A DNA stretch of 64,000 nucleotides from an uncultured Gammaproteobacteria bacterium (GCA_964436275.1 CAYTBZ010000001.1:33980-97979), one strand, 5' to 3'; shown: positions 5,518 through 55,300, numbered from the stretch's first letter. Program-made: numbers and translations. The notes: generated by a model from the sequence alone, not told the origin.

Positions 5518-5523
5518 GTTAAA

Positions 5524-5549
5524 TAGGTCCATTATGGACCTATTTTTTT
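5524..5549 (+). terminator. Rho-independent terminator (hairpin TAGGTCCA-TTA-TGGACCTA + T7), between convergent genes
   Basis: 8-bp perfect stem, 3-nt loop, TTTTTTT run on plus strand. Overlaps serS stop on minus strand. Confidence 0.5.
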
Positions 5550-15311: not shown

Positions 15312-16517
15312 TTACCAACCAATCGTCCTTTTAAATACCCCAATAATTTTCCCTCCATACCTAGCAAGGTCGAAATAAGTTACTATTAAAACAATAATCA
15401 TTAAGGCAATAAAGCCAAAAGTATGAATAGCGTTCTCTATTTCAATTTTTATCTTTCTACCCCTGATTTTTTCAATCAAAAGAAAAACTAATCTTCCTCC
15501 ATCTAAGGCAGGTATAGGCAAAATATTAATAATACCCAAATTTAAAGAAAGAAGGGCAGTAAATTGTAAAAGATAAATGAATCCTAAGTGAACTACTTGA
15601 TTAGTCAAAACAGCTATACCGATTGGTCCAGTTACTCCTCCTTTTATGCCTTTTCCTAAAATAAGACCCTTAACCATCAAAAAGATAAACCATATAAATT
15701 TACCAATTAAAATAATAGTCGTTTTTATCCCCTTCCAAATGGCTAAATACCAGGGATAACTAATAGTGCCTACTTTAACTAAACCTACACCAATAAGGGC
15801 TTTGCTTCCTTCTAATTCCTCTGTTTGAAAAGATATATTTTTAAATTCAGTTAGGGGGCGAGGAATTACTTTTTTCTCTAAAATTTTATCAAATCTTTTA
15901 ATTTTTAAATTAAGGGGTTGGTTGACTGATTGATTTACCTTTTCTTTAAAATCCTCTATTTTATAAACTTTTTCCCCATTGACCTCTAAAATCTCGTCAC
16001 CTATTTTAAGTCCTGCTTTTTCTGCTGGTGAATCTTTAAGAAGAGAAATTATCTCTATCCTTTCATCTTTTATTTTAAAATTCTTATTGCTTTTATCAAT
16101 CACCTGAGGTGATCCCAGAGAAAAAACAATAGATAATAAAATCATACAAAGAACAAAATTCATTAAGACGCCACCTGAAATTATTAGTCCCCTTTCCCAA
16201 ATCTTTTTATGAGCAAAACTATCTTCATCCTCTGCTTTTTCACCGGCTTCACCTTTTATTTTTACAAAACCACCTATAGGCAACCAATTTAAAGAATAAA
16301 TAGTATCTTCCGACTTAATTTCTTCTGTTTTTTGATTCCCGAAAAATAATTTTCTTCGGCCATTAACTTTTTTCAACCCGAGTATCCGCGGCGGATAGCC
16401 AAAACCGAATTCTTCTACTTTGACTCCTCTTCTTTTAGCAAAAATAAAATGGCCAAATTCGTGAACAAAAATTGATACGCCTAAAATTAAAATAAAAACG
16501 ATAATGGTAATCAACAT
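15312..16517 (-). CDS. rseP: Site-2 protease RseP (M50 family) with PDZ domain
   Basis: HEFGHFIFAKRRG HExxH motif in TM1, PDZ in the middle, C-terminal LDGG motif. Confidence 0.8.
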   Translation of the reverse strand: MLITIIVFILILGVSIFVHEFGHFIFAKRRGVKVEEFGFGYPPRILGLKKVNGRRKLFFGNQKTEEIKSEDTIYSLNWLPIGGFVKIKGEAGEKAEDEDSFAHKKIWERGLIISGGVLMNFVLCMILLSIVFSLGSPQVIDKSNKNFKIKDERIEIISLLKDSPAEKAGLKIGDEILEVNGEKVYKIEDFKEKVNQSVNQPLNLKIKRFDKILEKKVIPRPLTEFKNISFQTEELEGSKALIGVGLVKVGTISYPWYLAIWKGIKTTIILIGKFIWFIFLMVKGLILGKGIKGGVTGPIGIAVLTNQVVHLGFIYLLQFTALLSLNLGIINILPIPALDGGRLVFLLIEKIRGRKIKIEIENAIHTFGFIALMIIVLIVTYFDLARYGGKIIGVFKRTIGW

Positions 16518-43491: not shown

Positions 43492-45666
43492 TTAATTATC
43501 CTTAACTGGTAAAGTAAAATAAAAAGTTGAACCCTTACCTTTCCCTGGGGACTCAGCCCAGATTTTTCCGCCTTGCACCTCAATCAATCTTTTACAAATA
43601 TAAAGGCCTAAACCAGAGCCCCAAGGATTAACTTTATTATTTCTTAGACGAGAAAATTTCATAAATAATTTCTTCTTCTCTTCTGGACTAAAACCAATAC
43701 CTGTGTCTTTGACATAGACAAGAACCTCTTTTTTCTTTTCATCATACTTAAAGCCAACTGTTGCCCCTCCTTTTTCAATATATTTAATTGCATTGTCAAC
43801 AATATTTCTTAAAACTTCCCTTGTTTTCTCATAATCAAAATAAAATTCAGGAACTTCCTTTTTAGGTTTTTCAACCTTTAAATAAATACCCATTTTTTCA
43901 GCCAAAACTTTTAATTCGGATACCACATCATTGACTAACTCTTCTATATTCCCCTTCTCTTTCCGCACAGTAATTTTACCTGCTTCAATATGGGCAACAT
44001 CTAAAAAACTACCGATTAATTTTATTTGCCTTAAAGTCGCTTGATAGATATCATTAGCCACTTCTAATTGTTTTTTGTTTAATTTTCCATAATCGCCCCT
44101 TAAAAGTGCTTTAGCGTACCAACGTAAGATAGTCATTGGGGTTCTTAACTGATGCGAGACGATTCTTAAAAATTCTGACTTTGCCTGGTCTAATCTTTTT
44201 AATTCAGCATTAGCCGCTCTTAAATCTTTGGTTGCCTGGGCTACTTTTATTTTTAATTCTTCAGCAAAACGTTGTGTTTTTCTGAAGAGAAGGGCATTCT
44301 CAATAGAAATAGACGCCTGAAGAGCCAAGTTTTCCAAAAGACGAATATCTTGAACAGTAAAAGCATCACCAGATGCTTTTTCTCCTAAAAGAATCATCCC
44401 ATAAATTTCCCCTTTACTTACCAAAGGTAAAACCATGCTAATTTTTGACTTTGATAATATCTTTTTTAATTTTTCTTTCTCTTCTGGTGATAAAAGAATG
44501 ATTTCAATTTCCTGTAAAAGAATTGTCTGCTTTAACTTTTTTAAAAAGTAAAAAAGGGATTCTTTAAATGGAGAAATTACTAAACTGTCAGGTTTTTTCT
44601 TTAAAACTATTAAGTTTTCCTCACCCGGTTCTTTAACAATAACGCCAAACCTCTCAATATGTAGAGTTTCGTTAATTGTCTTATAAATTAAATTGACAAT
44701 ATCATCTAAATAAAATATCTTCGGCAGGGCTTGGGTTAATTCTTCAATCTTTCGACGGGTATCATATAAACTGGCAAAAAGATATTTATTGGCTAATTTT
44801 TCAAAAAATGATTTTATGGGAAAGAACACACTTATTGAAAGCAAAATTGCTACTGAATCAACTAAAAGCAAAAGCCCGGTTATCTTTTCACCCAAATATC
44901 GACTTACTAGCCAGACCAGTAAAACTCCCAATCCTCCAGCAACACCAAGCGAAAGCCCATAAACCGTTCCTCTTCTAACAACCACTCGAATATCAAAAAG
45001 CCGATAACGAGTAATGGCGTAGGCTAAGATGGTAACAAAAAACAATCCCGATAAAAAAGGAAAAGGAAGAATAGGGATTTCATAAGCAGGTAAATATCCT
45101 AAAGGGCCTATTAAAATTAGAATAAAGAAAGCCAAAAAGATATAATAAGATTGATTTTTCTTTATTGGCCCTGCTGATTTTTTATAATATCTGTATAAGT
45201 TAATAATAAATAGAATGAGATAGATAGAAAAGTAAATTAAAAATACATGATGAAACAATCTAGCCTTAGTATGTACCCCCCACTTATATCTGAATAATCC
45301 GCTTACAAAATAGTCAGTTCTACTAAGTATCAAAAAAAAGATAGACAATAAATATCCTAAAACTACACAAGATCTTTGTAGTTTCTCTCTGATTTTCTGA
45401 GTAAAAACTACTCCAAAGTGATAAAATAATGCGGGGATAAAAACAACGCTTCCGTAAATAAAACGGTCCCAAAAAATCGCGGATTCTCCAGCTGTGCTTC
45501 TAAACATTTTAAATGTGCCAAATAACCAATTACCTACCGCAATTGTTATGAAAAAGAAAATTAAATTGAGGGTCGTAACCTTCTTTCTGAAAAATACAAT
45601 AATACCAAGTGCAAAGACAAAAAGAGCACTTATTAAAGGAATAAGAGAGATTAAATATGTATTCAT
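43492..45666 (-). CDS. Sensor histidine kinase with N-terminal multi-TM sensor region, GAF-like domain, HisKA and HATPase_c
   Basis: H-box RIVSHQLRTPMTIL, and N, G1 (DTGIG), G2 (GSGLGL) boxes. 724 aa. Confidence 0.85.
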   Translation of the reverse strand: MNTYLISLIPLISALFVFALGIIVFFRKKVTTLNLIFFFITIAVGNWLFGTFKMFRSTAGESAIFWDRFIYGSVVFIPALFYHFGVVFTQKIREKLQRSCVVLGYLLSIFFLILSRTDYFVSGLFRYKWGVHTKARLFHHVFLIYFSIYLILFIINLYRYYKKSAGPIKKNQSYYIFLAFFILILIGPLGYLPAYEIPILPFPFLSGLFFVTILAYAITRYRLFDIRVVVRRGTVYGLSLGVAGGLGVLLVWLVSRYLGEKITGLLLLVDSVAILLSISVFFPIKSFFEKLANKYLFASLYDTRRKIEELTQALPKIFYLDDIVNLIYKTINETLHIERFGVIVKEPGEENLIVLKKKPDSLVISPFKESLFYFLKKLKQTILLQEIEIILLSPEEKEKLKKILSKSKISMVLPLVSKGEIYGMILLGEKASGDAFTVQDIRLLENLALQASISIENALLFRKTQRFAEELKIKVAQATKDLRAANAELKRLDQAKSEFLRIVSHQLRTPMTILRWYAKALLRGDYGKLNKKQLEVANDIYQATLRQIKLIGSFLDVAHIEAGKITVRKEKGNIEELVNDVVSELKVLAEKMGIYLKVEKPKKEVPEFYFDYEKTREVLRNIVDNAIKYIEKGGATVGFKYDEKKKEVLVYVKDTGIGFSPEEKKKLFMKFSRLRNNKVNPWGSGLGLYICKRLIEVQGGKIWAESPGKGKGSTFYFTLPVKDN

Positions 45667-45720
45667 AGAAATAAAATAATAACAATTTGTTTACATTATC
45701 TAGTATATCAATAGTAAACA

Positions 45721-45753
45721 AAAAATAAAAGAGGGGATTAATCAATCCCCTCT
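45721..45753 (-). terminator. Rho-independent terminator of the oxidoreductase gene (AGAGGGGATTGATTAATCCCCTCT + TTTATTTTTT on minus strand)
   Basis: 10-bp GC-containing stem followed by T-run when read on minus strand. Confidence 0.6.
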
Positions 45754-45762
45754 GCCTATGTT

Positions 45763-46809
45763 CTATCTTTTCGTTATAGTAACTTTTTTGAAAAAGTCCA
45801 TATCAACTAACTTTCCAAAAGAGGTAAAAGGAGCATGAAGAAAACCATATTTCCTTCCTAGAACAAGAATCCTTTCCATATAAGAAATATCTATTTCTCC
45901 GATATGATCAGAATGATCATTTTCTAAACACTGAATTATTGCTTCCGCCCAACAAGAAAACGTTGTCCCTGACCGGACACCAGGTACTCTTACTCCTAAT
46001 TCTATATTGGGGATATTTACCATGGCTCCGTCAATTTTAAGTAAATTCGGTCTAATCTGACGAATTATTTCATAGCTAGCTTTTGAAAGATTAGGAGGCA
46101 CAGAAACTTCATAGACCACTACTCGTTTATCTTTGTTAATATAATCTGCTTTTATAAGTGAATCGGGGTGACTTGTTGCTGTTACAATAATATCTGCTGG
46201 ATATATATCGCTTAAAGAAACAGAGGCTTTTATTTTCGCTGCTCGAGGATAAGGTAAATTACTTATAAATCTCTGGAGTCGTGTTGGATTGTGCCCTATT
46301 AAAATTAAAGACACGTCTCTCTTACATAAAGACAAGGTCAGGGCTTTACCTATCAACCCATATGCTCCGACAATAGCTATGGTAAACTCTTCTAAAGAGG
46401 TGCCCATAGCTTCTGCAATTAAATCTAAACCCTCCAGGGAAACTCCGGCCGCATAACTATCTCCGTGGGTGATAGCAGCAGTAACGCCTTCTTGAATAAC
46501 AAGCCAACGTCCTTTATCAGTAATAGAAGAAGTTAATGAGGTTAAAGCAACAAACTCTACCCCTAAATAATTTTGGGCCCAGATTACAGCATCCAAAATA
46601 TCTTTTCTGACTTTCCTTATATTACCCGGTGACATCATATCTTTTCCGGTCACACCTAGTGTAATCACATAACCCTTAGCTCTATCAAAAATATTAAATT
46701 CACCCCATACTTTATATGCGGGAAGATTTCTTTTACTTTCGCACTCCGGAAATACGGCTGGTATATCTGATTTGTCTCTTAAATTTGTAATTATAGCTAC
46801 CTTTCTCAC
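45763..46809 (-). CDS. NAD(P)-binding Rossmann-fold oxidoreductase, shikimate-DH/glutamyl-tRNA-reductase-like C-terminal half, novel N-terminal half (GTG start)
   Basis: IAIVGAYGLIGKAL dinucleotide motif, ADIIVTATSHPDSLI...VVVYEVSVPPN resembling AroE/HemA NAD domains. Confidence 0.45.
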   Translation of the reverse strand: MRKVAIITNLRDKSDIPAVFPECESKRNLPAYKVWGEFNIFDRAKGYVITLGVTGKDMMSPGNIRKVRKDILDAVIWAQNYLGVEFVALTSLTSSITDKGRWLVIQEGVTAAITHGDSYAAGVSLEGLDLIAEAMGTSLEEFTIAIVGAYGLIGKALTLSLCKRDVSLILIGHNPTRLQRFISNLPYPRAAKIKASVSLSDIYPADIIVTATSHPDSLIKADYINKDKRVVVYEVSVPPNLSKASYEIIRQIRPNLLKIDGAMVNIPNIELGVRVPGVRSGTTFSCWAEAIIQCLENDHSDHIGEIDISYMERILVLGRKYGFLHAPFTSFGKLVDMDFFKKVTITKR

Positions 46810-46930
46810 CTTTTCCTCCTTTTCTTATTTTCTCTTTCCTTAACTTAAAAAACTTAAAAAATAAAATACGCCCTCCTTTCTTTTTCCTCCTAACTTTCAA
46901 AGAACAAAATTGTAAGGTTTCTTTTCTTTT

Positions 46931-46960
46931 AAAAATAGCATAATTTTTGTGTTTTGTCAA
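46931..46960 (-). promoter_or_regulatory. Promoter TTGACA-N17-TATTTT with long leader for oxidoreductase gene; paralogous to 48169-48197
   Basis: Minus-strand reading TTGACAaaacacaaaaattatgcTATTTT. Shared downstream TTTGTTCTTTGAA motif. Confidence 0.4.
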
Positions 46961-47009
46961 TTTCCTGTACTAGAAGGGTACATAGGTAACACTTTTAGGT
47001 ATTAGGATT

Positions 47010-47067
47010 GATGGGTCGCACCCGTCAAGCTTGATGGGTGCGACCCATCAAAACAGTGCGACCCATC
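47010..47067. repeat. REP doublet (near-palindrome GATGGGTCGCACCCGTCAAGCTTGATGGGTGCGACCCATC) plus extra GTGCGACCCATC copy
   Basis: Near-identical to the 40-bp palindrome at 48797-48836. Confidence 0.7.
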
Positions 47068-47145
47068 AAAACATGTAAACCTTTAAATAATAAAGAAAAA
47101 CTTTATAATCTTGTTCATCTAAGAAAATTTTTCTCTTCTCTAAAT
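47068..47145 (-). pseudogene. Fragment of RAYT/IS200-like transposase gene (codons ~23-45, frameshifted)
   Basis: Reverse strand translates to LEKRKIFLDEQDYKVFLYYLKVYMF*, about 95% identical in DNA to 48855-48922. 11-nt deletion relative to the intact copy. Confidence 0.55.
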
Positions 47146-47146
47146 G

Positions 47147-47190
47147 ATGGGTCGCACCCATCAAAAAAGACCGGGAAAATCCCGGTCTAA
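47147..47190 (-). terminator. REP unit GGTCGCACCCATC + intrinsic terminator hairpin GACCGGGAAAATCCCGGTC (TTTTTTG on minus strand)
   Basis: Lies 38 nt downstream of stop of 47228..48109. 42-nt identical to 49102-49143. Confidence 0.6.
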
Positions 47191-47227
47191 AAAGAACTTA
47201 TTTCAGCCTCTCAACTTTGAGAAATTT

Positions 47228-48109
47228 TTATTCCTCCTCTATTCCACTGTCAAACTCAATTTTATACTTACTCATTTGGCTCAAGTCGTAATCAGTATAA
47301 ATATAACCTTCAAATGTCTTCGTCTGACCATTACTGAAATTAGAAATAATAATAAGTTCAGATTCAAGAAGATTATCATCCTCATCATAGACACTGATTC
47401 TGAAATGCGCTAAAAGATAATCCTTACCAGAGTTATTAGTCATTTCACCTATTACTTTAATATACCCTACTCCAGAGTCCTTAAAATGCACATTTTTATA
47501 AAAAAATCCTCCGGCTATACCCGTAGCTTCTTCCTCTGTGATCCCTCTTTTAAATCCTTTTGTCTTCTTCTGGATATCCCGAAACGTCTCTTCAGTTTTA
47601 TTAATCGTCTTCTTAAACTCTTCCCATCTATCCTTATCAAGTACTATGGTAACCTTTTGGGCATCTATTTTATTAACACTAACTATAGTTATGTAAGGAC
47701 CTTTGACTCCGACCTTCTTCTCAAATTCCTTTTCAAACCAAATACCAATAACCAAAAAAACATTTTCTCCTCTTATTCTATCTTCTACCGAACCAATGAT
47801 AAGAACTGAATCAGCGAGTTCCTGATAGTTCTCTTGAGTTTCCTGAAACGACTTATCTGTCTTACTAACTATCGTCTTAAGCTCTTCCCAACTATCCTTA
47901 TCCAAAAGTACAACAACTTTCTGGGAGTCAATATTATCAACATTAACTATACTTATAAAAGGACCAATCTTTTGTGCAAGGCCAGCAACCATACCTAAAT
48001 AATTCTCCTTTAGAACCATATCTTTCACTACTCCAGTAACGATAAGAGAATCAGGTTCAGCAATTAATGAGATAAATAAAAAGAGGAGAACTAATAAAAC
48101 CTTCTTCAC
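47228..48109 (-). CDS. Secreted hypothetical protein with two tandem ~90-aa repeat domains (GTG start)
   Basis: Signal-peptide-like MKKVLLVLLFLFISLIA, SD AAGGAGG. Internal DNA tandem duplication (about 47560-47700 vs 47830-47960). Confidence 0.55.
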   Translation of the reverse strand: MKKVLLVLLFLFISLIAEPDSLIVTGVVKDMVLKENYLGMVAGLAQKIGPFISIVNVDNIDSQKVVVLLDKDSWEELKTIVSKTDKSFQETQENYQELADSVLIIGSVEDRIRGENVFLVIGIWFEKEFEKKVGVKGPYITIVSVNKIDAQKVTIVLDKDRWEEFKKTINKTEETFRDIQKKTKGFKRGITEEEATGIAGGFFYKNVHFKDSGVGYIKVIGEMTNNSGKDYLLAHFRISVYDEDDNLLESELIIISNFSNGQTKTFEGYIYTDYDLSQMSKYKIEFDSGIEEE

Positions 48110-48168
48110 TTTTTACCTCCTTTGTTTTTATTGTTTTTCATCCTTTTCAAAGAACAAATTTTTCCTTA

Positions 48169-48197
48169 AAACTAGCACATCTTAAGTATCTTGTCAA
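48169..48197 (-). promoter_or_regulatory. Promoter TTGACA-N17-TAGTTT for 47228..48109, abutting REP flank
   Basis: Minus-strand reading TTGACAagatacttaagatgtgcTAGTTT, then TTTGTTCTTTGAA motif at 48146-48158. Confidence 0.4.
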
Positions 48198-48201
48198 ATT
48201 C

Positions 48202-48275
48202 TTCGTCAGGGTTTCGTCAGGGTCGCACCCTAAAAAACCAGGTCGCACCCTAAAAAACCGCGCCCTAAAACACCT
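48202..48275. repeat. Flanking repeat array: (C/T)TTCGTCAGGG x2 then 20-bp units CAGGTCGCACCCTAAAAAAC x2 plus degenerate third
   Basis: Direct tandem repeats immediately downstream of the RAYT gene. Confidence 0.7.
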
Positions 48276-48281
48276 TAAAAG

Positions 48282-48989
48282 TCATTCTAAAGTCATTTCT
48301 TTTAAAATCTCTTTAGAATCAATAATATAGTTCTCAACAAACTCTTGATAAGAAGCAAAAGCTTTTATGTCTTTATCTCCGGTTGTTTTAAAATATTGGA
48401 GAATTTCTTCTGGATGAACCCAGGAAGTTTTTCGTTCGCCTATATAATCTGGATAACTTGAATAAGAATACTCAATTAGTTTCTTGGGATCTGATCCTTT
48501 TATTAACTCCAATGGGTTACAGTGGATATATCGGGAAAGATGAAGAAGATAACTTTCTTTATCAATCAAAACTGCTTTATAACGCCCTTGGAAAAGAGAA
48601 CTAACCCTTTCATATTTTTCATTAAAATATCTAACATAAGCATTTGCCAACCGTTTCATAAATTCTCTCATTGCTCTTTCATCAATCTGTTTTAACATAA
48701 AATGAAAATGGTTTGGCATTAAACAATACGCTAAAAGTTTAACCCTTTTATAAAGATCATAATCATTACCCAGTCGAAGTATATTAAATGGTATTTGATG
48801 GGTCGCACCCGTCAAGCTTGACGGGTGCGACCCATCAAAACATGGCTCACTAAGATAAACCTTTAAATAATAAAGAAAAACTTTATAATCCTGTTCGTCT
48901 AGGAAAATTTTTCTCTTCTCTACTCCACGATTATAAACGTGATAAATTCCTCCGCTTACATATTTTTTGACTGTATTTTTAGAAGGCAT
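48282..48989 (-). CDS. REP-associated tyrosine transposase (RAYT, IS200/IS605-like HUH Y1 family)
   Basis: YHVYNRG...IFLDEQDY..FL N-terminal motif, HUH motif LMPNHFHFML, catalytic Y region (GRYKAV). 235 aa. Confidence 0.75.
   Translation of the reverse strand: MPSKNTVKKYVSGGIYHVYNRGVEKRKIFLDEQDYKVFLYYLKVYLSEPCFDGSHPSSLTGATHQIPFNILRLGNDYDLYKRVKLLAYCLMPNHFHFMLKQIDERAMREFMKRLANAYVRYFNEKYERVSSLFQGRYKAVLIDKESYLLHLSRYIHCNPLELIKGSDPKKLIEYSYSSYPDYIGERKTSWVHPEEILQYFKTTGDKDIKAFASYQEFVENYIIDSKEILKEMTLE
48797..48836. repeat. Perfect 40-bp palindrome (REP inverted doublet) inside the RAYT ORF, encoding DGSHPSSLTGATH
   Basis: GATGGGTCGCACCCGTCAAG|CTTGACGGGTGCGACCCATC, exact reverse-complement halves around AAGCTT. 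Confidence 0.8.
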
Positions 48990-49048
48990 AAATAAATAAA
49001 AACAATAAAATAAAAATAGTTTACTTTATTATACCACAAAAAGTGTGC

Positions 49049-49143
49049 TTTCGTCAGGGTTTCGTCAGGGTGCGACCTAAAACCAGGTCGCACTAAAACC
49101 AGGTCGCACCCATCAAAAAAGACCGGGAAAATCCCGGTCTAAA
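49049..49143. repeat. Flanking repeat array: TTTCGTCAGGG x2, GGGTGCGACC (inverted), GGTCGCAC, GGTCGCACCCATC, then terminator hairpin GACCGGGAAAATCCCGGTC
   Basis: Upstream of RAYT. Doubles as terminator of the AMP-binding gene (stop at 49153). Confidence 0.7.
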
Positions 49144-49152
49144 GGGGCCTAT

Positions 49153-50706
49153 TTAGCCCATTATTGTTTTCTTCATTATTTTTACTATGCTTTTCCTCCC
49201 TCCTTTTGAATATAAATTTAATATCTCTATTCTAGAAGGAACCTCTTCTGGTTTAAGCAAAGAGCGGCAGTAATTTATCAGATCCTTCTCGGTTAGTTCA
49301 GATTCCCTCCTCAAAATAACCAAAGCAATAACCTCTTCTTCAATCTGCTTCTTCTTTGTCCTCTTACCCACTACTATTGCCTGCTTCACTCCTGGATGCG
49401 ATTCCAAAACCATCTCTACCTCTTGCGGAGAAACCTCACCACCAAAAGAAGAATAAATAAGTTCATTCCTTATCTGGTCAGTAATAATTATACTTCCCCC
49501 GTTCTTTTTACCTGCTAAACCGCTTCGCCAAAATCCATTTTCCCTTTCTGCTTCTGTTCGCACTTTATCTCTCCAATATCCTCTAAACACTTGAGGTCCG
49601 GCAACCAAAAATTCTCCCATTTTTACTCTTACTTCCATGCCCTCTACTTCTGAAAAAGCGCCTCCGCTCAGACCTATAAACATAGGAAAGGCCTCTGGAA
49701 AGCCAAGAATACGGATAATTTCTACTTCTCCGGCTAATTTCTCATAGAGATTCTTCTCCAGGAATGGATTAAAACTCTGCTCCAACACGCCGATGAACCG
49801 CAGGAAAGACAGATCTGGTCTTTGGAAATCCTTTATTAATTCATTAAGAAGCCCTGGCGTTGTCCAAAGAAAAGAGTGATTTTTCCAGCGAACCAGTCCT
49901 CTCTTCAATTCATCCGAATAAAGTTTGGGGAAAACTACTGAGGAACATCCGGCTGTCAAGGAGAAAAGTAAACTAACCAACCCAGGATATTCAAAAGGAG
50001 CAAAAACGAATGCCCTTTCTTCAGGAGAAGAAAAAATCTCTGGCCGATGCTGAAGGAACCATTTACCCAATTGATAAATTGCTGCCGTGACATTGCTATG
50101 ACTTATCCCTACTAGTTCTTTACCTCTTGTTTTATAAATTATCACTGCGGCATCTTCTTCTGGAACAATATTTACTGGCGAGAAATCAGGGCTATTCTCT
50201 GCTACTAGAAGAGGAAAATGGAAAGAAGAGGAAGATTTGAATGGTCCAGGAGAGAGATGAACATTCACAATGTGCTCTAAAGAACTTCTCCTGCTCTTTC
50301 TTAGAAAGTCAAAGTCATCAACCTTATCATCTGAACAAATAGCTACTTTTGCCTGAGATTTAGAAACTACTTCTTTAATCTTCCAGGTTCTCTCACGAGG
50401 ACCAAGTAAAATAGCCACCGCACCTATCCTATTCAATGCCAAAAAAGAGATAACAAACTGGAAGCAATTAGGCAAACAGATAATCACCCGGTCACCCTTT
50501 TTCACCCCAATCTTTTGCAAAGCATTGGCAAAGCGCTGACTCTTTTCCTGTAATTCTTGATAACTCATTTTCTTTCTATCTACTCCAGAAATAAGGGCTG
50601 GCTTTTCCGGATTATACTTAACCATATCATCGAAAACAGCATAAGGAGGGATAAAATGAAGATAAATCTCATCAAATAATCTGTGTACATCTCTCGCCTC
50701 GGCCAT
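49153..50706 (-). CDS. AMP-dependent synthetase/ligase (acyl-CoA synthetase / adenylation-domain family)
   Basis: AMP-binding superfamily layout. 517 aa. Confidence 0.75.
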   Translation of the reverse strand: MAEARDVHRLFDEIYLHFIPPYAVFDDMVKYNPEKPALISGVDRKKMSYQELQEKSQRFANALQKIGVKKGDRVIICLPNCFQFVISFLALNRIGAVAILLGPRERTWKIKEVVSKSQAKVAICSDDKVDDFDFLRKSRRSSLEHIVNVHLSPGPFKSSSSFHFPLLVAENSPDFSPVNIVPEEDAAVIIYKTRGKELVGISHSNVTAAIYQLGKWFLQHRPEIFSSPEERAFVFAPFEYPGLVSLLFSLTAGCSSVVFPKLYSDELKRGLVRWKNHSFLWTTPGLLNELIKDFQRPDLSFLRFIGVLEQSFNPFLEKNLYEKLAGEVEIIRILGFPEAFPMFIGLSGGAFSEVEGMEVRVKMGEFLVAGPQVFRGYWRDKVRTEAERENGFWRSGLAGKKNGGSIIITDQIRNELIYSSFGGEVSPQEVEMVLESHPGVKQAIVVGKRTKKKQIEEEVIALVILRRESELTEKDLINYCRSLLKPEEVPSRIEILNLYSKGGRKSIVKIMKKTIMG

Positions 50707-54920: not shown

Positions 54921-54936
54921 AAAAATTATTAAAGAT

Positions 54937-55300
54937 GGTTAAGCAGACCTATAAGCCGAGTTCTGTACTCCAAAAAGGAGCGACGGCTATTTATCTGGAC
55001 CGGTTATTACTAACCGGCTCTAACGACCTACCAAAATTTGGTCTTTCACCCGGGTAAGGATTTAGCCGTTTCACCTCGGTTTTTTGACCTCTTTTATAAC
55101 CGAGCTCAGCCTGATTAATAAGAAGAGGTCCAGGCTGCCCTTAGATTACTCCTTGGGCGTCTCTGTTCGCACCTCTATCCCGCTAAAAGCGGGACGACGG
55201 GTGTTACCCGCTACCCTTTTTCTCTTCTTAAAGAAGAGAGAGTGCTCGGACTTTCCTCTCTGTCTGATTAAGACAGAGCAGCCGTCCGGTCTGCTTAACC
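54937..55300 (-). ncRNA. rnpB: RNase P RNA (bacterial type A)
   Basis: Minus strand reads 5'-GGUUAAGCAGACC...GAGAGGAAAGUCCGAGCACUCUC (P4 5' strand)...ACAGAACUCGGCUUAUAGGUCUGCUUAACC-3' (P4 3' strand, P1 closing). GC-rich island. The overlapping plus ORF is spurious. Confidence 0.8.

Follow-up and report, generated by a model that had tools for sequence, protein, structure and literature searches.

An in-frame palindrome of two REP-like hairpin units in a Y1/HUH transposase-like gene: a probable tolerated insertion of the enzyme's own presumed substrate

Insertion of REPs within the tnpA_REP genes themselves has been called unique to TnpA_Y1 subclass 2.4 (Quentin, Siguier, Chandler and Fichant 2018, PMC6006769), the members of which carry the signature NH[IFV]H, WQ and YIxNNP, with a median HuH-Y distance of 88 aa and an insertion located between HuH and Y (PMC6006769). 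For subclass 2.1, characterized by NH[YF]H, FQ, Y[IV]HLNP, an SS tail motif and a length of about 238 aa, no REP-like sequences were found near the genes (PMC6006769). Intragenic REPs have been reported in many genes, in more than half of the cases as dimers or groups of repeats that code for 20-30 aa (Di Nocera et al. 2013, PMC3733652), and Bertels et al. (2017; PMC5581495) contains nothing on internal hairpins for RAYT group 1.

The window analysed here, i.e., the whole stretch of 64,000 nucleotides, contains a transposase-like gene that carries within its reading frame a perfect palindrome composed of the same type of hairpin unit that is clustered on both of its flanks. With a probability of roughly 0.7, this palindrome represents a tolerated in-frame insertion of the enzyme's own presumed substrate, a hairpin doublet, in a permissive loop. 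The features of the locus are the following:

48282..48989, minus strand: Y1/HUH single-strand-DNA transposase-like gene of 235 aa (open reading frame, Pfam, motifs, structural model)
48794..48839, no strand: palindrome of two inverted REP-like units (sequence, arm complementarity, folding)
49045..49119, no strand: upstream cluster of hairpin units, with cores at 49069-49077, 49086-49094 and 49102-49118 (repeat families D2, D4 and D8)
48202..48274, no strand: downstream cluster of hairpin units, with cores at 48221-48229 and 48241-48249 (repeat families D4, D7 and D8)
49028..49057, minus strand: promoter-like site (CTGACG, 18 nt, TG-TATAAT), the -35 hexamer of which lies inside the repeat cluster
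49120..49140, minus strand: intrinsic-terminator hairpin found by a terminator scan, abutting the upstream repeat and part of the repeated unit
47008..47075, no strand: second palindrome copy and an 18-nt duplicated partial unit (repeat families D5 and D2)
47076..47142, minus strand: transposase gene fragment, approximately codons 24-46, 96% identical to 48856-48922 (repeat family D3, alignment A3)
47145..47191, no strand: hairpin unit and terminator with the same sequence as 49102-49143, joined directly to codon 24 of the fragment

The 235-aa protein matched the Pfam family Y1_Tnp (PF01797) over residues 81-156 with 39.4 bits, above the cut-off of 23, and possesses the motifs NHFH (93-96) and YIHCNP (154-159), in which H94, H96, Y154 and N158 were invariant among the 37 sequences of alignment A1. 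Its AlphaFold (AF2) model (pLDDT 86, pTM 0.85) has the predicted TnpA fold of the Y1/HUH superfamily, and the best Foldseek match was 4ER8 (E 7.9e-7), E. coli TnpA_REP with its REP hairpin, followed by ISDra2 and IS608 TnpA; this fold search told more than the sequence search of the PDB, which gave weak ISDra2 matches only. The gene had been called a RAYT ORF in the original prediction, and a RAYT-like Y1/HUH protein is indeed encoded; however, it is not a canonical RAYT, since it scored 42.3 bits against a cut-off of 80 with the NCBIfam profile REP_Tyr_transpos (NF047646). As in a RAYT/REPtron, hairpin repeats lie on both flanks of the gene, at 49045-49119 and 48202-48274. Their unit, (TT)GATGGGT-CGC-ACCC(G/A)TC(AA), lacks the canonical REP foot GT[AG]G, with neither GTAG nor GTGG present. 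By comparison with the published motif signatures only, and not with the authors' profiles, the protein corresponds to TnpA_Y1 subclass 2.1 (NHFH, LFQG, YIH(C/L)NP, YSYSSY, 235 aa), and it departs from subclass 2.4 in having FQG instead of WQ, YIHCNP, a HuH-Y distance of 60 aa and an insertion before HuH. The absence of nearby REP-like sequences reported for subclass 2.1 does not apply, as hairpins flank the gene both in the window and in most homologs. The IS200/IS605 TnpA proteins (subclass 1.1) are likewise a poor fit, given the Y---NP motif, the length of 235 aa, and the presence of one intact copy and one remnant in the window.

The palindrome comprises 46 bp (48794-48839) in two arms of 23 nt (48794-48816 and 48817-48839) that are 100% complementary and have no spacer between them. 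A 40-mer had been predicted at 48797-48836; it is present exactly as written, with three more palindromic bases at either end. When the window was shuffled 20 times, perfect arms reached at most 8-12 nt, and a 20-mer of the arm, with up to three mismatches allowed, had five matches in the window against 0 expected. The palindrome is richer in GC (26 of 46 bases) than the window background (30-34% GC), and it consists of two inverted copies of the hairpin unit GATGGGT-CGC-ACCCRTC. As DNA, a single arm folds to a small hairpin (GATGGGT-CGC-ACCCGTC, its partner being the inverted copy), with predicted energies of -4.2 and -6.3 kcal/mol for the two arms singly; the whole single-stranded 46-mer reaches -27.4 kcal/mol, the two units, joined without a spacer, forming one hairpin. 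Folding of the corresponding RNA in context gave -41.7 kcal/mol (z = -8.9). Read on the minus strand, the palindrome is translated in frame as FDGSHPSSLTGATHQ(I), residues 50-65 of the 235-aa protein, and it is situated, as had been proposed, inside the ORF 48282-48989 between the motifs YHVYNRG (16-22) and NHFH (93-96).

Other roles for the palindrome were considered. A function as terminator was rejected, as a T-run is absent after the palindrome on both strands and the terminator scan was negative there. An internal promoter at 48815-48788 on the minus strand was also discarded, its TTGACG-16-TACCAT matching at only 9/12 positions and being without an obvious downstream start; the TTGACG hexamer of this weak promoter-like match (48788-48815, minus strand) comes from the centre of the palindrome. 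An Rfam scan of the whole window found nothing at the palindrome, and the only match was the bacterial class A RNase P RNA (54936-55297, minus strand, 125 bits). An unrelated perfect palindrome with a 12-bp stem, AAATAGGTCCATTATGGACCTATTT, is found at 5521-5545.

Both flanking clusters share their repeats, each holding two copies of TTCGTCAGGGT. The core GGTCGCACC, with one mismatch allowed, occurs 13 times in the 64 kb against 1 expected, and 11 of these 13 cores are located in the upstream cluster, the downstream cluster, the palindrome or a remnant at 47008-47191; two more cores were found in the sister locus L164, one between two called genes and the other immediately beyond the 293-aa gene. 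Exact copies of the unit away from the gene and the remnant were not detected in the 64-kb window, which is part of a genome, and both palindrome copies present there adjoin or lie within sequence of the transposase gene, with no solo copies in the same 64 kb. When viral contigs were scanned for the 17-nt unit, four single matches were returned, which by a rough estimate is probably no more than chance.

Upstream, the order on the gene strand is terminator (49140-49120), repeat units and extended -10 promoter (49057-49028). The terminator hairpin, AGACCGGGATTTTCCCGGTCT, and the first repeat unit form the 42-nt repeat family D6, in which 49102-49143 is 100% identical to 47150-47191, and near-identical pairs of terminator and repeat are present in L161 (2840-2890) and L162 (625-680). 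This combination follows three unrelated upstream genes, encoding an AMP-binding protein, a 293-aa hypothetical protein and a Shikimate_DH-like protein, which indicates that the terminator travels with the transposase unit. The left end of IS200 carries a terminator, an arrangement that the upstream end of the present unit resembles.

Alignment A1 places the residues encoded by the palindrome in a stretch of variable length between YLKxYL and (I/L)Pxx...DLYK, and 19 residues separate the bracketing YL and IP/LP in the window compared with 8-10 in the nearest palindrome-free homologs, so that the segment constitutes extra length with respect to these relatives. In the model, which is otherwise confident, residues 47-67 between the helices 32-46 and 68-72 make up the sole internal stretch of low pLDDT (below 50 at residues 58-63). 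An interval of about 70 aa between the motifs, against about 40-45 aa in typical proteins, had been predicted: the interval is longer than in the nearest relatives, but the excess amounts to about 9-11 aa and not to about 25-30 aa, because a long interval between the motifs is common to the whole family. The argument from length holds against the nearest relatives only, because some subfamilies have a long helical insert at this position (site 1), and across the family, genes that have a hairpin and genes that lack one did not differ in the length of the site-1 loop (median 28 vs 30 aa, p = 0.32). These observations bear on the idea that the segment is ancestral coding sequence, palindromic by chance and without any insertion. 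Every member of the family has the loop, and some of the hairpin-coded peptides are conserved within subfamilies (e.g., TLKGxxFKG and HPLxxxLTGxxPV), as would be expected of an ancestral segment; however, a perfect arm of 23 nt is far beyond chance, palindrome-free relatives have the shorter loop, a close relative has a different palindrome there, and the same DNA unit lies outside the gene. An ancestral origin is therefore considered highly improbable.

The intact ORF with the same insert was recovered in five further assemblies (P0124-P0127 and L167), indicating that no frameshift or sequencing error is involved; the interruption of the frame that the original prediction had named as a possible objection was not seen. 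That the palindrome itself could be an artefact of assembly or sequencing has next to no probability, as the same intact sequence was obtained in several independent assemblies (NCBI, JGI and ENA), on contigs of up to 108 kb, and one variant has two point differences inside the palindrome. A short contig that folds back 33 nt after the palindrome could be taken as a sign of such an artefact. This contig, L172 (1078 bp, ENA; region 1000-1078), ends with the reverse complement of the sequence that precedes the palindrome, giving a 69-aa chimeric ORF (P0123); it could stem from a fold-back made by the assembler at the palindrome or from a molecule that was really folded back.

Comparison of close relatives showed that the insert is subject to turnover. 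L163 had 0 differences in the 46 nt of the palindrome against 18 in the remaining 662 nt of the gene, and L164 had two uncompensated changes in the 46 nt against five in the remaining 662 nt; the L164 changes give no sign of selection for perfect symmetry in the lineage of the window. A different doublet, GTTTGTAAGGTCGGACCT-tcaagg-AGGTCCGACCTTACAAAC, with arms of 18 nt, occupies the same codon position in L161 (P0128, approximately 80% identical), which retains the GATGGGTGCGACCATC unit in its upstream flank. The divergence of L161 was 20/45 in the insert compared with 103/657 in the rest of the gene, and the insert is a replacement and not the product of drift.

The repeats also coincide with the ends of damaged gene copies. 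The second palindrome (47008-47051) has 22-nt arms with one mismatch and belongs to the 48-nt repeat family D5, 98% identical to 48795-48842; the segment 47008..47075 forms one boundary of a decayed gene copy. This remnant (47008-47191) has the codon-24 junction seen in L165/P0121, followed by about 23 codons of the gene, and it ends just past the second palindrome copy, which bears an 18-nt internal duplication; the bases that follow resemble the junction beside the downstream repeat of L162. In L162, where the gene is truncated at its 5' end, the terminator and repeat are joined at the second half of the internal palindrome, and in L165 and L166 (P0121) they are joined to codon 24. Breakpoints at repeats in these three truncated copies (L162, L165/L166 and the window remnant), which are the whole of the breakpoint evidence, bear out the earlier description of the palindrome as a hazard, and the doublet site is most likely still prone to rearrangement. 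A search for further gene fragments ending at hairpins, in which each locus was searched with its own protein, returned only translations of the hairpins.

The neighbourhood of the copies varies. The gene order is AMP-binding, transposase, 293-aa gene, remnant, ShikDH-like and histidine kinase in the window (43492-50706), and ShikDH-like, truncated transposase, AMP-binding and histidine kinase in L162 (1-5325). The differing order around the copies in the window compared with L162 and L161 suggests that rearrangements may have occurred at the copies. The 293-aa ORF (47228-48109) has no Pfam match and encodes an internally duplicated domain of about 88 aa, seen in the DNA as a 137-nt direct repeat with 73% identity (47565-47701 and 47829-47965). 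GC skew is uniformly negative (-0.14 to -0.22) across the window (1-64000, 30-34% GC), which places the whole window on one replichore, with the sense strand of the transposase as the G-rich strand.

The window case is one instance of a family-wide habit, in which the gene's own hairpin is carried, almost always, in one of two loops. The protein search found more than 7,900 homologs. Among 160 related loci, mostly from Patescibacteria MAGs and yielding 153 distinct genes, a strong GC-containing internal hairpin was identified in 52 genes, and in 49 of these 52 a 9-mer was common to the internal hairpin and the gene's own 200-nt flanks, compared with 18% when non-cognate flanks were used and 3% with distant segments of the same locus. 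A more sensitive census covered the 142 genes with adequate flanking DNA. A hairpin repeat was present in 105 of them, in 21 at four places and in 34 upstream and downstream only; 76 of the 142 homologs have flanking hairpins on both sides of the gene, and approximately 56 (39%) contain at least one internal copy of their own flanking hairpin. By the numbering of the window, the internal copies concentrate at aa 50-79 (39 copies) and aa 160-174 (41), with about five elsewhere; per kb, the genes hold about 0.9 of them and the remainder of the loci 0.023. They are read in all three frames. The loop of the second site (site 2) had a median of 18 aa when occupied and 13 aa when empty (p = 7e-10). 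By repeat finding, L148, L049 and L087 each have four copies in register and L067 has three, and internal doublets like that of the window occur in L084, L087-L090, L100 and L118; a site-2 copy is absent in the window lineage. In a literature search, neither this family nor internal hairpins were found to have been described in Patescibacteria.

These data also address whether the doublet came from another mobile hairpin family, or from a generic palindromic miniature element, that landed in the gene by chance. Non-cognate insertions do occur, given that the internal doublet of L161 (AAGGTCGGACCTT type) is unlike its own upstream unit, and the L011 hairpin (ACAAGGGCCCCCCTTG core) is found in frame in a membrane-protein-like ORF of 923 aa as well, 4.8 kb from the transposase (at about position 15491 when the locus is oriented so that its transposase gene is on the + strand), so such hairpins can occupy other genes. 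Nevertheless, the internal units of the window match its flanking units, as do nearly all internal hairpins across the family (the 49 of 52 above), and a foreign source for the doublet is accordingly regarded as very improbable.

A tolerated insertion of the enzyme's own presumed substrate thus remains the preferred explanation, and the arms of flanking hairpin type, the variable loop of low pLDDT and the exchange of the doublet in L161 uphold the earlier suggestion of a REP-doublet insertion tolerated in a loop. The palindrome is a head-to-head pair of the short REP-like unit of the flanking clusters. By analogy with E. coli TnpA_REP and the IS200/IS605 TnpA proteins, the hairpin would presumably be bound and cut as single-stranded DNA by the encoded enzyme; binding and cleavage by this protein are suggested by the 4ER8 complex and by IS608-type enzymes. 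The doublet may have inserted into, or overwritten, a surface loop that follows the first long helix and precedes the HUH-bearing strand, with a net length change that was a multiple of three, so that the fold would have been kept and some ten disordered residues gained. The 46-nt insert is itself not a multiple of three, and the size of the original event and the sequence it replaced are not reconstructible. The insertion was presumably made by the gene's own product acting on nearby DNA. The transposase-like protein may still be active, and the internal copy may still serve as a substrate.

Purely passive tolerance is contradicted in one clade of homologs, where the internal hairpins are far too well conserved. 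The clade comprises 14 genes with 67-100% aa identity, in which four fixed positions are occupied by an identical 23-nt hairpin: upstream of the gene (by 31-67 nt), inside it at aa 47-50 and at aa 153-160, and downstream of it (by 0-41 nt). The hairpin exists in three variants, CCTGCAGGGCC, CCTGCAAGGCC and CCTTCAAGGCC, which differ by compensatory pairs, and the variant is nearly always uniform across all places of a gene, with the exception of L119, which is mixed. At the DNA level, the internal hairpins (identity 0.86-0.90) are as conserved as the HuH and Y motifs, compared with 0.5-0.6 in the surrounding loops, and one and the same hairpin DNA is read in different frames at the two internal sites, so the constraint is not on the peptide. 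Such over-conservation in the sequences points to either active homogenisation or selection. The 96% identical L119 and L128 show a complete compensatory swap of one hairpin, the downstream one, and in the 99% identical L148 and L152 the loop base of the aa 50 hairpin is flipped between A and T; both differences would indicate fast inversion or replacement of hairpins. The conservation and the swaps together require frequent overwriting between copies or selection on DNA or RNA, and either fits. In a clade searched for a conserved target or cleavage motif beside the hairpins, none was found beyond the sharply bounded 23-nt unit, and the GTAG foot was present in two genes only.

These findings also speak for another explanation, namely that the internal hairpin is a maintained cis-acting element, with the enzyme or its C-terminal domain recognising copies upstream, inside and downstream of the gene; possible uses would be limiting its own expression, providing alternative ends or keeping a protected reference copy of the cognate substrate. 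The fixed places with compensatory variants, the conservation at the level of catalytic motifs and the use of different frames in the 14-gene clade are what such an element would be expected to leave, as is the similar spacing of four copies in the very distant L148, L049 and L087, the hairpin sequences of which are unrelated. However, concerted evolution would also result from repeated overwriting without benefit, as illustrated by the L119/L128 swap and the L148/L152 flip. Moreover, the 34 of 142 genes with flanking hairpins only do without an internal copy, some clades have a decayed internal hairpin but a retained peptide, and internal copies coincide with gene-destroying deletions. In the window lineage itself, the palindrome decays (L164) or is replaced (L161) and site 2 is empty. 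A maintained element is thought unlikely. The broader proposal that the four hairpins (upstream, near aa 50, near aa 160 and downstream), placed around the catalytic core, form a functional layout conserved throughout this family, which is largely one of Patescibacteria, is held to be similarly doubtful. If it were true, internal and flanking hairpins would co-evolve since the enzyme must recognise them, possible roles would include self-limitation, alternative ends and a master copy re-seeding the outer repeats, and the doublet in the window would be a live component rather than a scar.

The present case carries a curiosity of one RAYT subclass over to another family, a very large one that abounds in Patescibacteria and had been regarded as REP-free. 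Its insertions return at the same two loops and vary in step with the hairpins of the flanks. The family offers a natural system for studying the co-evolution of a single-strand-DNA enzyme with its substrate, whether the enzyme overwrites the repeats, and how much palindromic DNA a coding sequence can carry. As the palindromes mark breakpoints of gene decay and fold-backs of contigs, they also matter for the assembly and annotation of such genomes.

Among the known systems, subclass 2.4 (RAYT group 4) is similar in that its own REP-type hairpins flank the gene and lie in frame inside it, in a variable peripheral region. It differs in the position of the insertions, which in the present family precede HuH (site 1, the case of the window) or follow the Y motif (site 2), and in its signature, as the family described here has a HuH-Y distance of 60 aa, FQ and YIH(L/C)NP, no GT[AG]G foot and mostly Patescibacteria as hosts. 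Subclass 2.1 (RAYT group 1, TIRYT) shares the motif signature, the serine-rich tail (YSYSSY here), the length of about 238 aa and the C-terminal extension; however, TIRYTs have terminal inverted repeats only (PMC6006769, PMC3733652 and PMC5581495), whereas hairpins here are both flanking and internal. The best structural match, E. coli TnpA_REP (4ER8), is also a Y1/HUH enzyme whose gene is flanked by hairpins, which it binds and cleaves as single-stranded DNA, and inverted REP pairs occur in that system (PMC3333891 and PMC3479197). Sequence identity to it is only about 15%, the REPs of E. coli are extragenic and number hundreds of copies, and a REP inside the gene is not described in PMC3333891 or PMC3479197. 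Intragenic REPs and the Rickettsia palindromic elements (PMC3733652) are likewise in-frame palindromic repeats, often dimers, that are tolerated in loops, but they reside in unrelated host genes, in contrast to the gene of the presumed mobilising enzyme here, where insertions recur at two fixed loops. In IS200/IS605, a Y1 transposase gene is bounded by subterminal hairpins, as in the present case; the protein studied here has Y---NP and not Y---Q and 235 aa instead of about 150, multiple identical copies are lacking, and hairpins inside tnpA are not described for IS200/IS605 in the literature compared. A REPIN consists of two inverted REPs that form one long hairpin and are replicated together at many extragenic sites; the doublet of the window folds as one hairpin, and within the 64 kb it was seen only in association with transposase gene sequence. 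The phenomenon is thus known from subclass 2.4, and what is new here is its occurrence in a family resembling subclass 2.1, at different positions and with concerted change.
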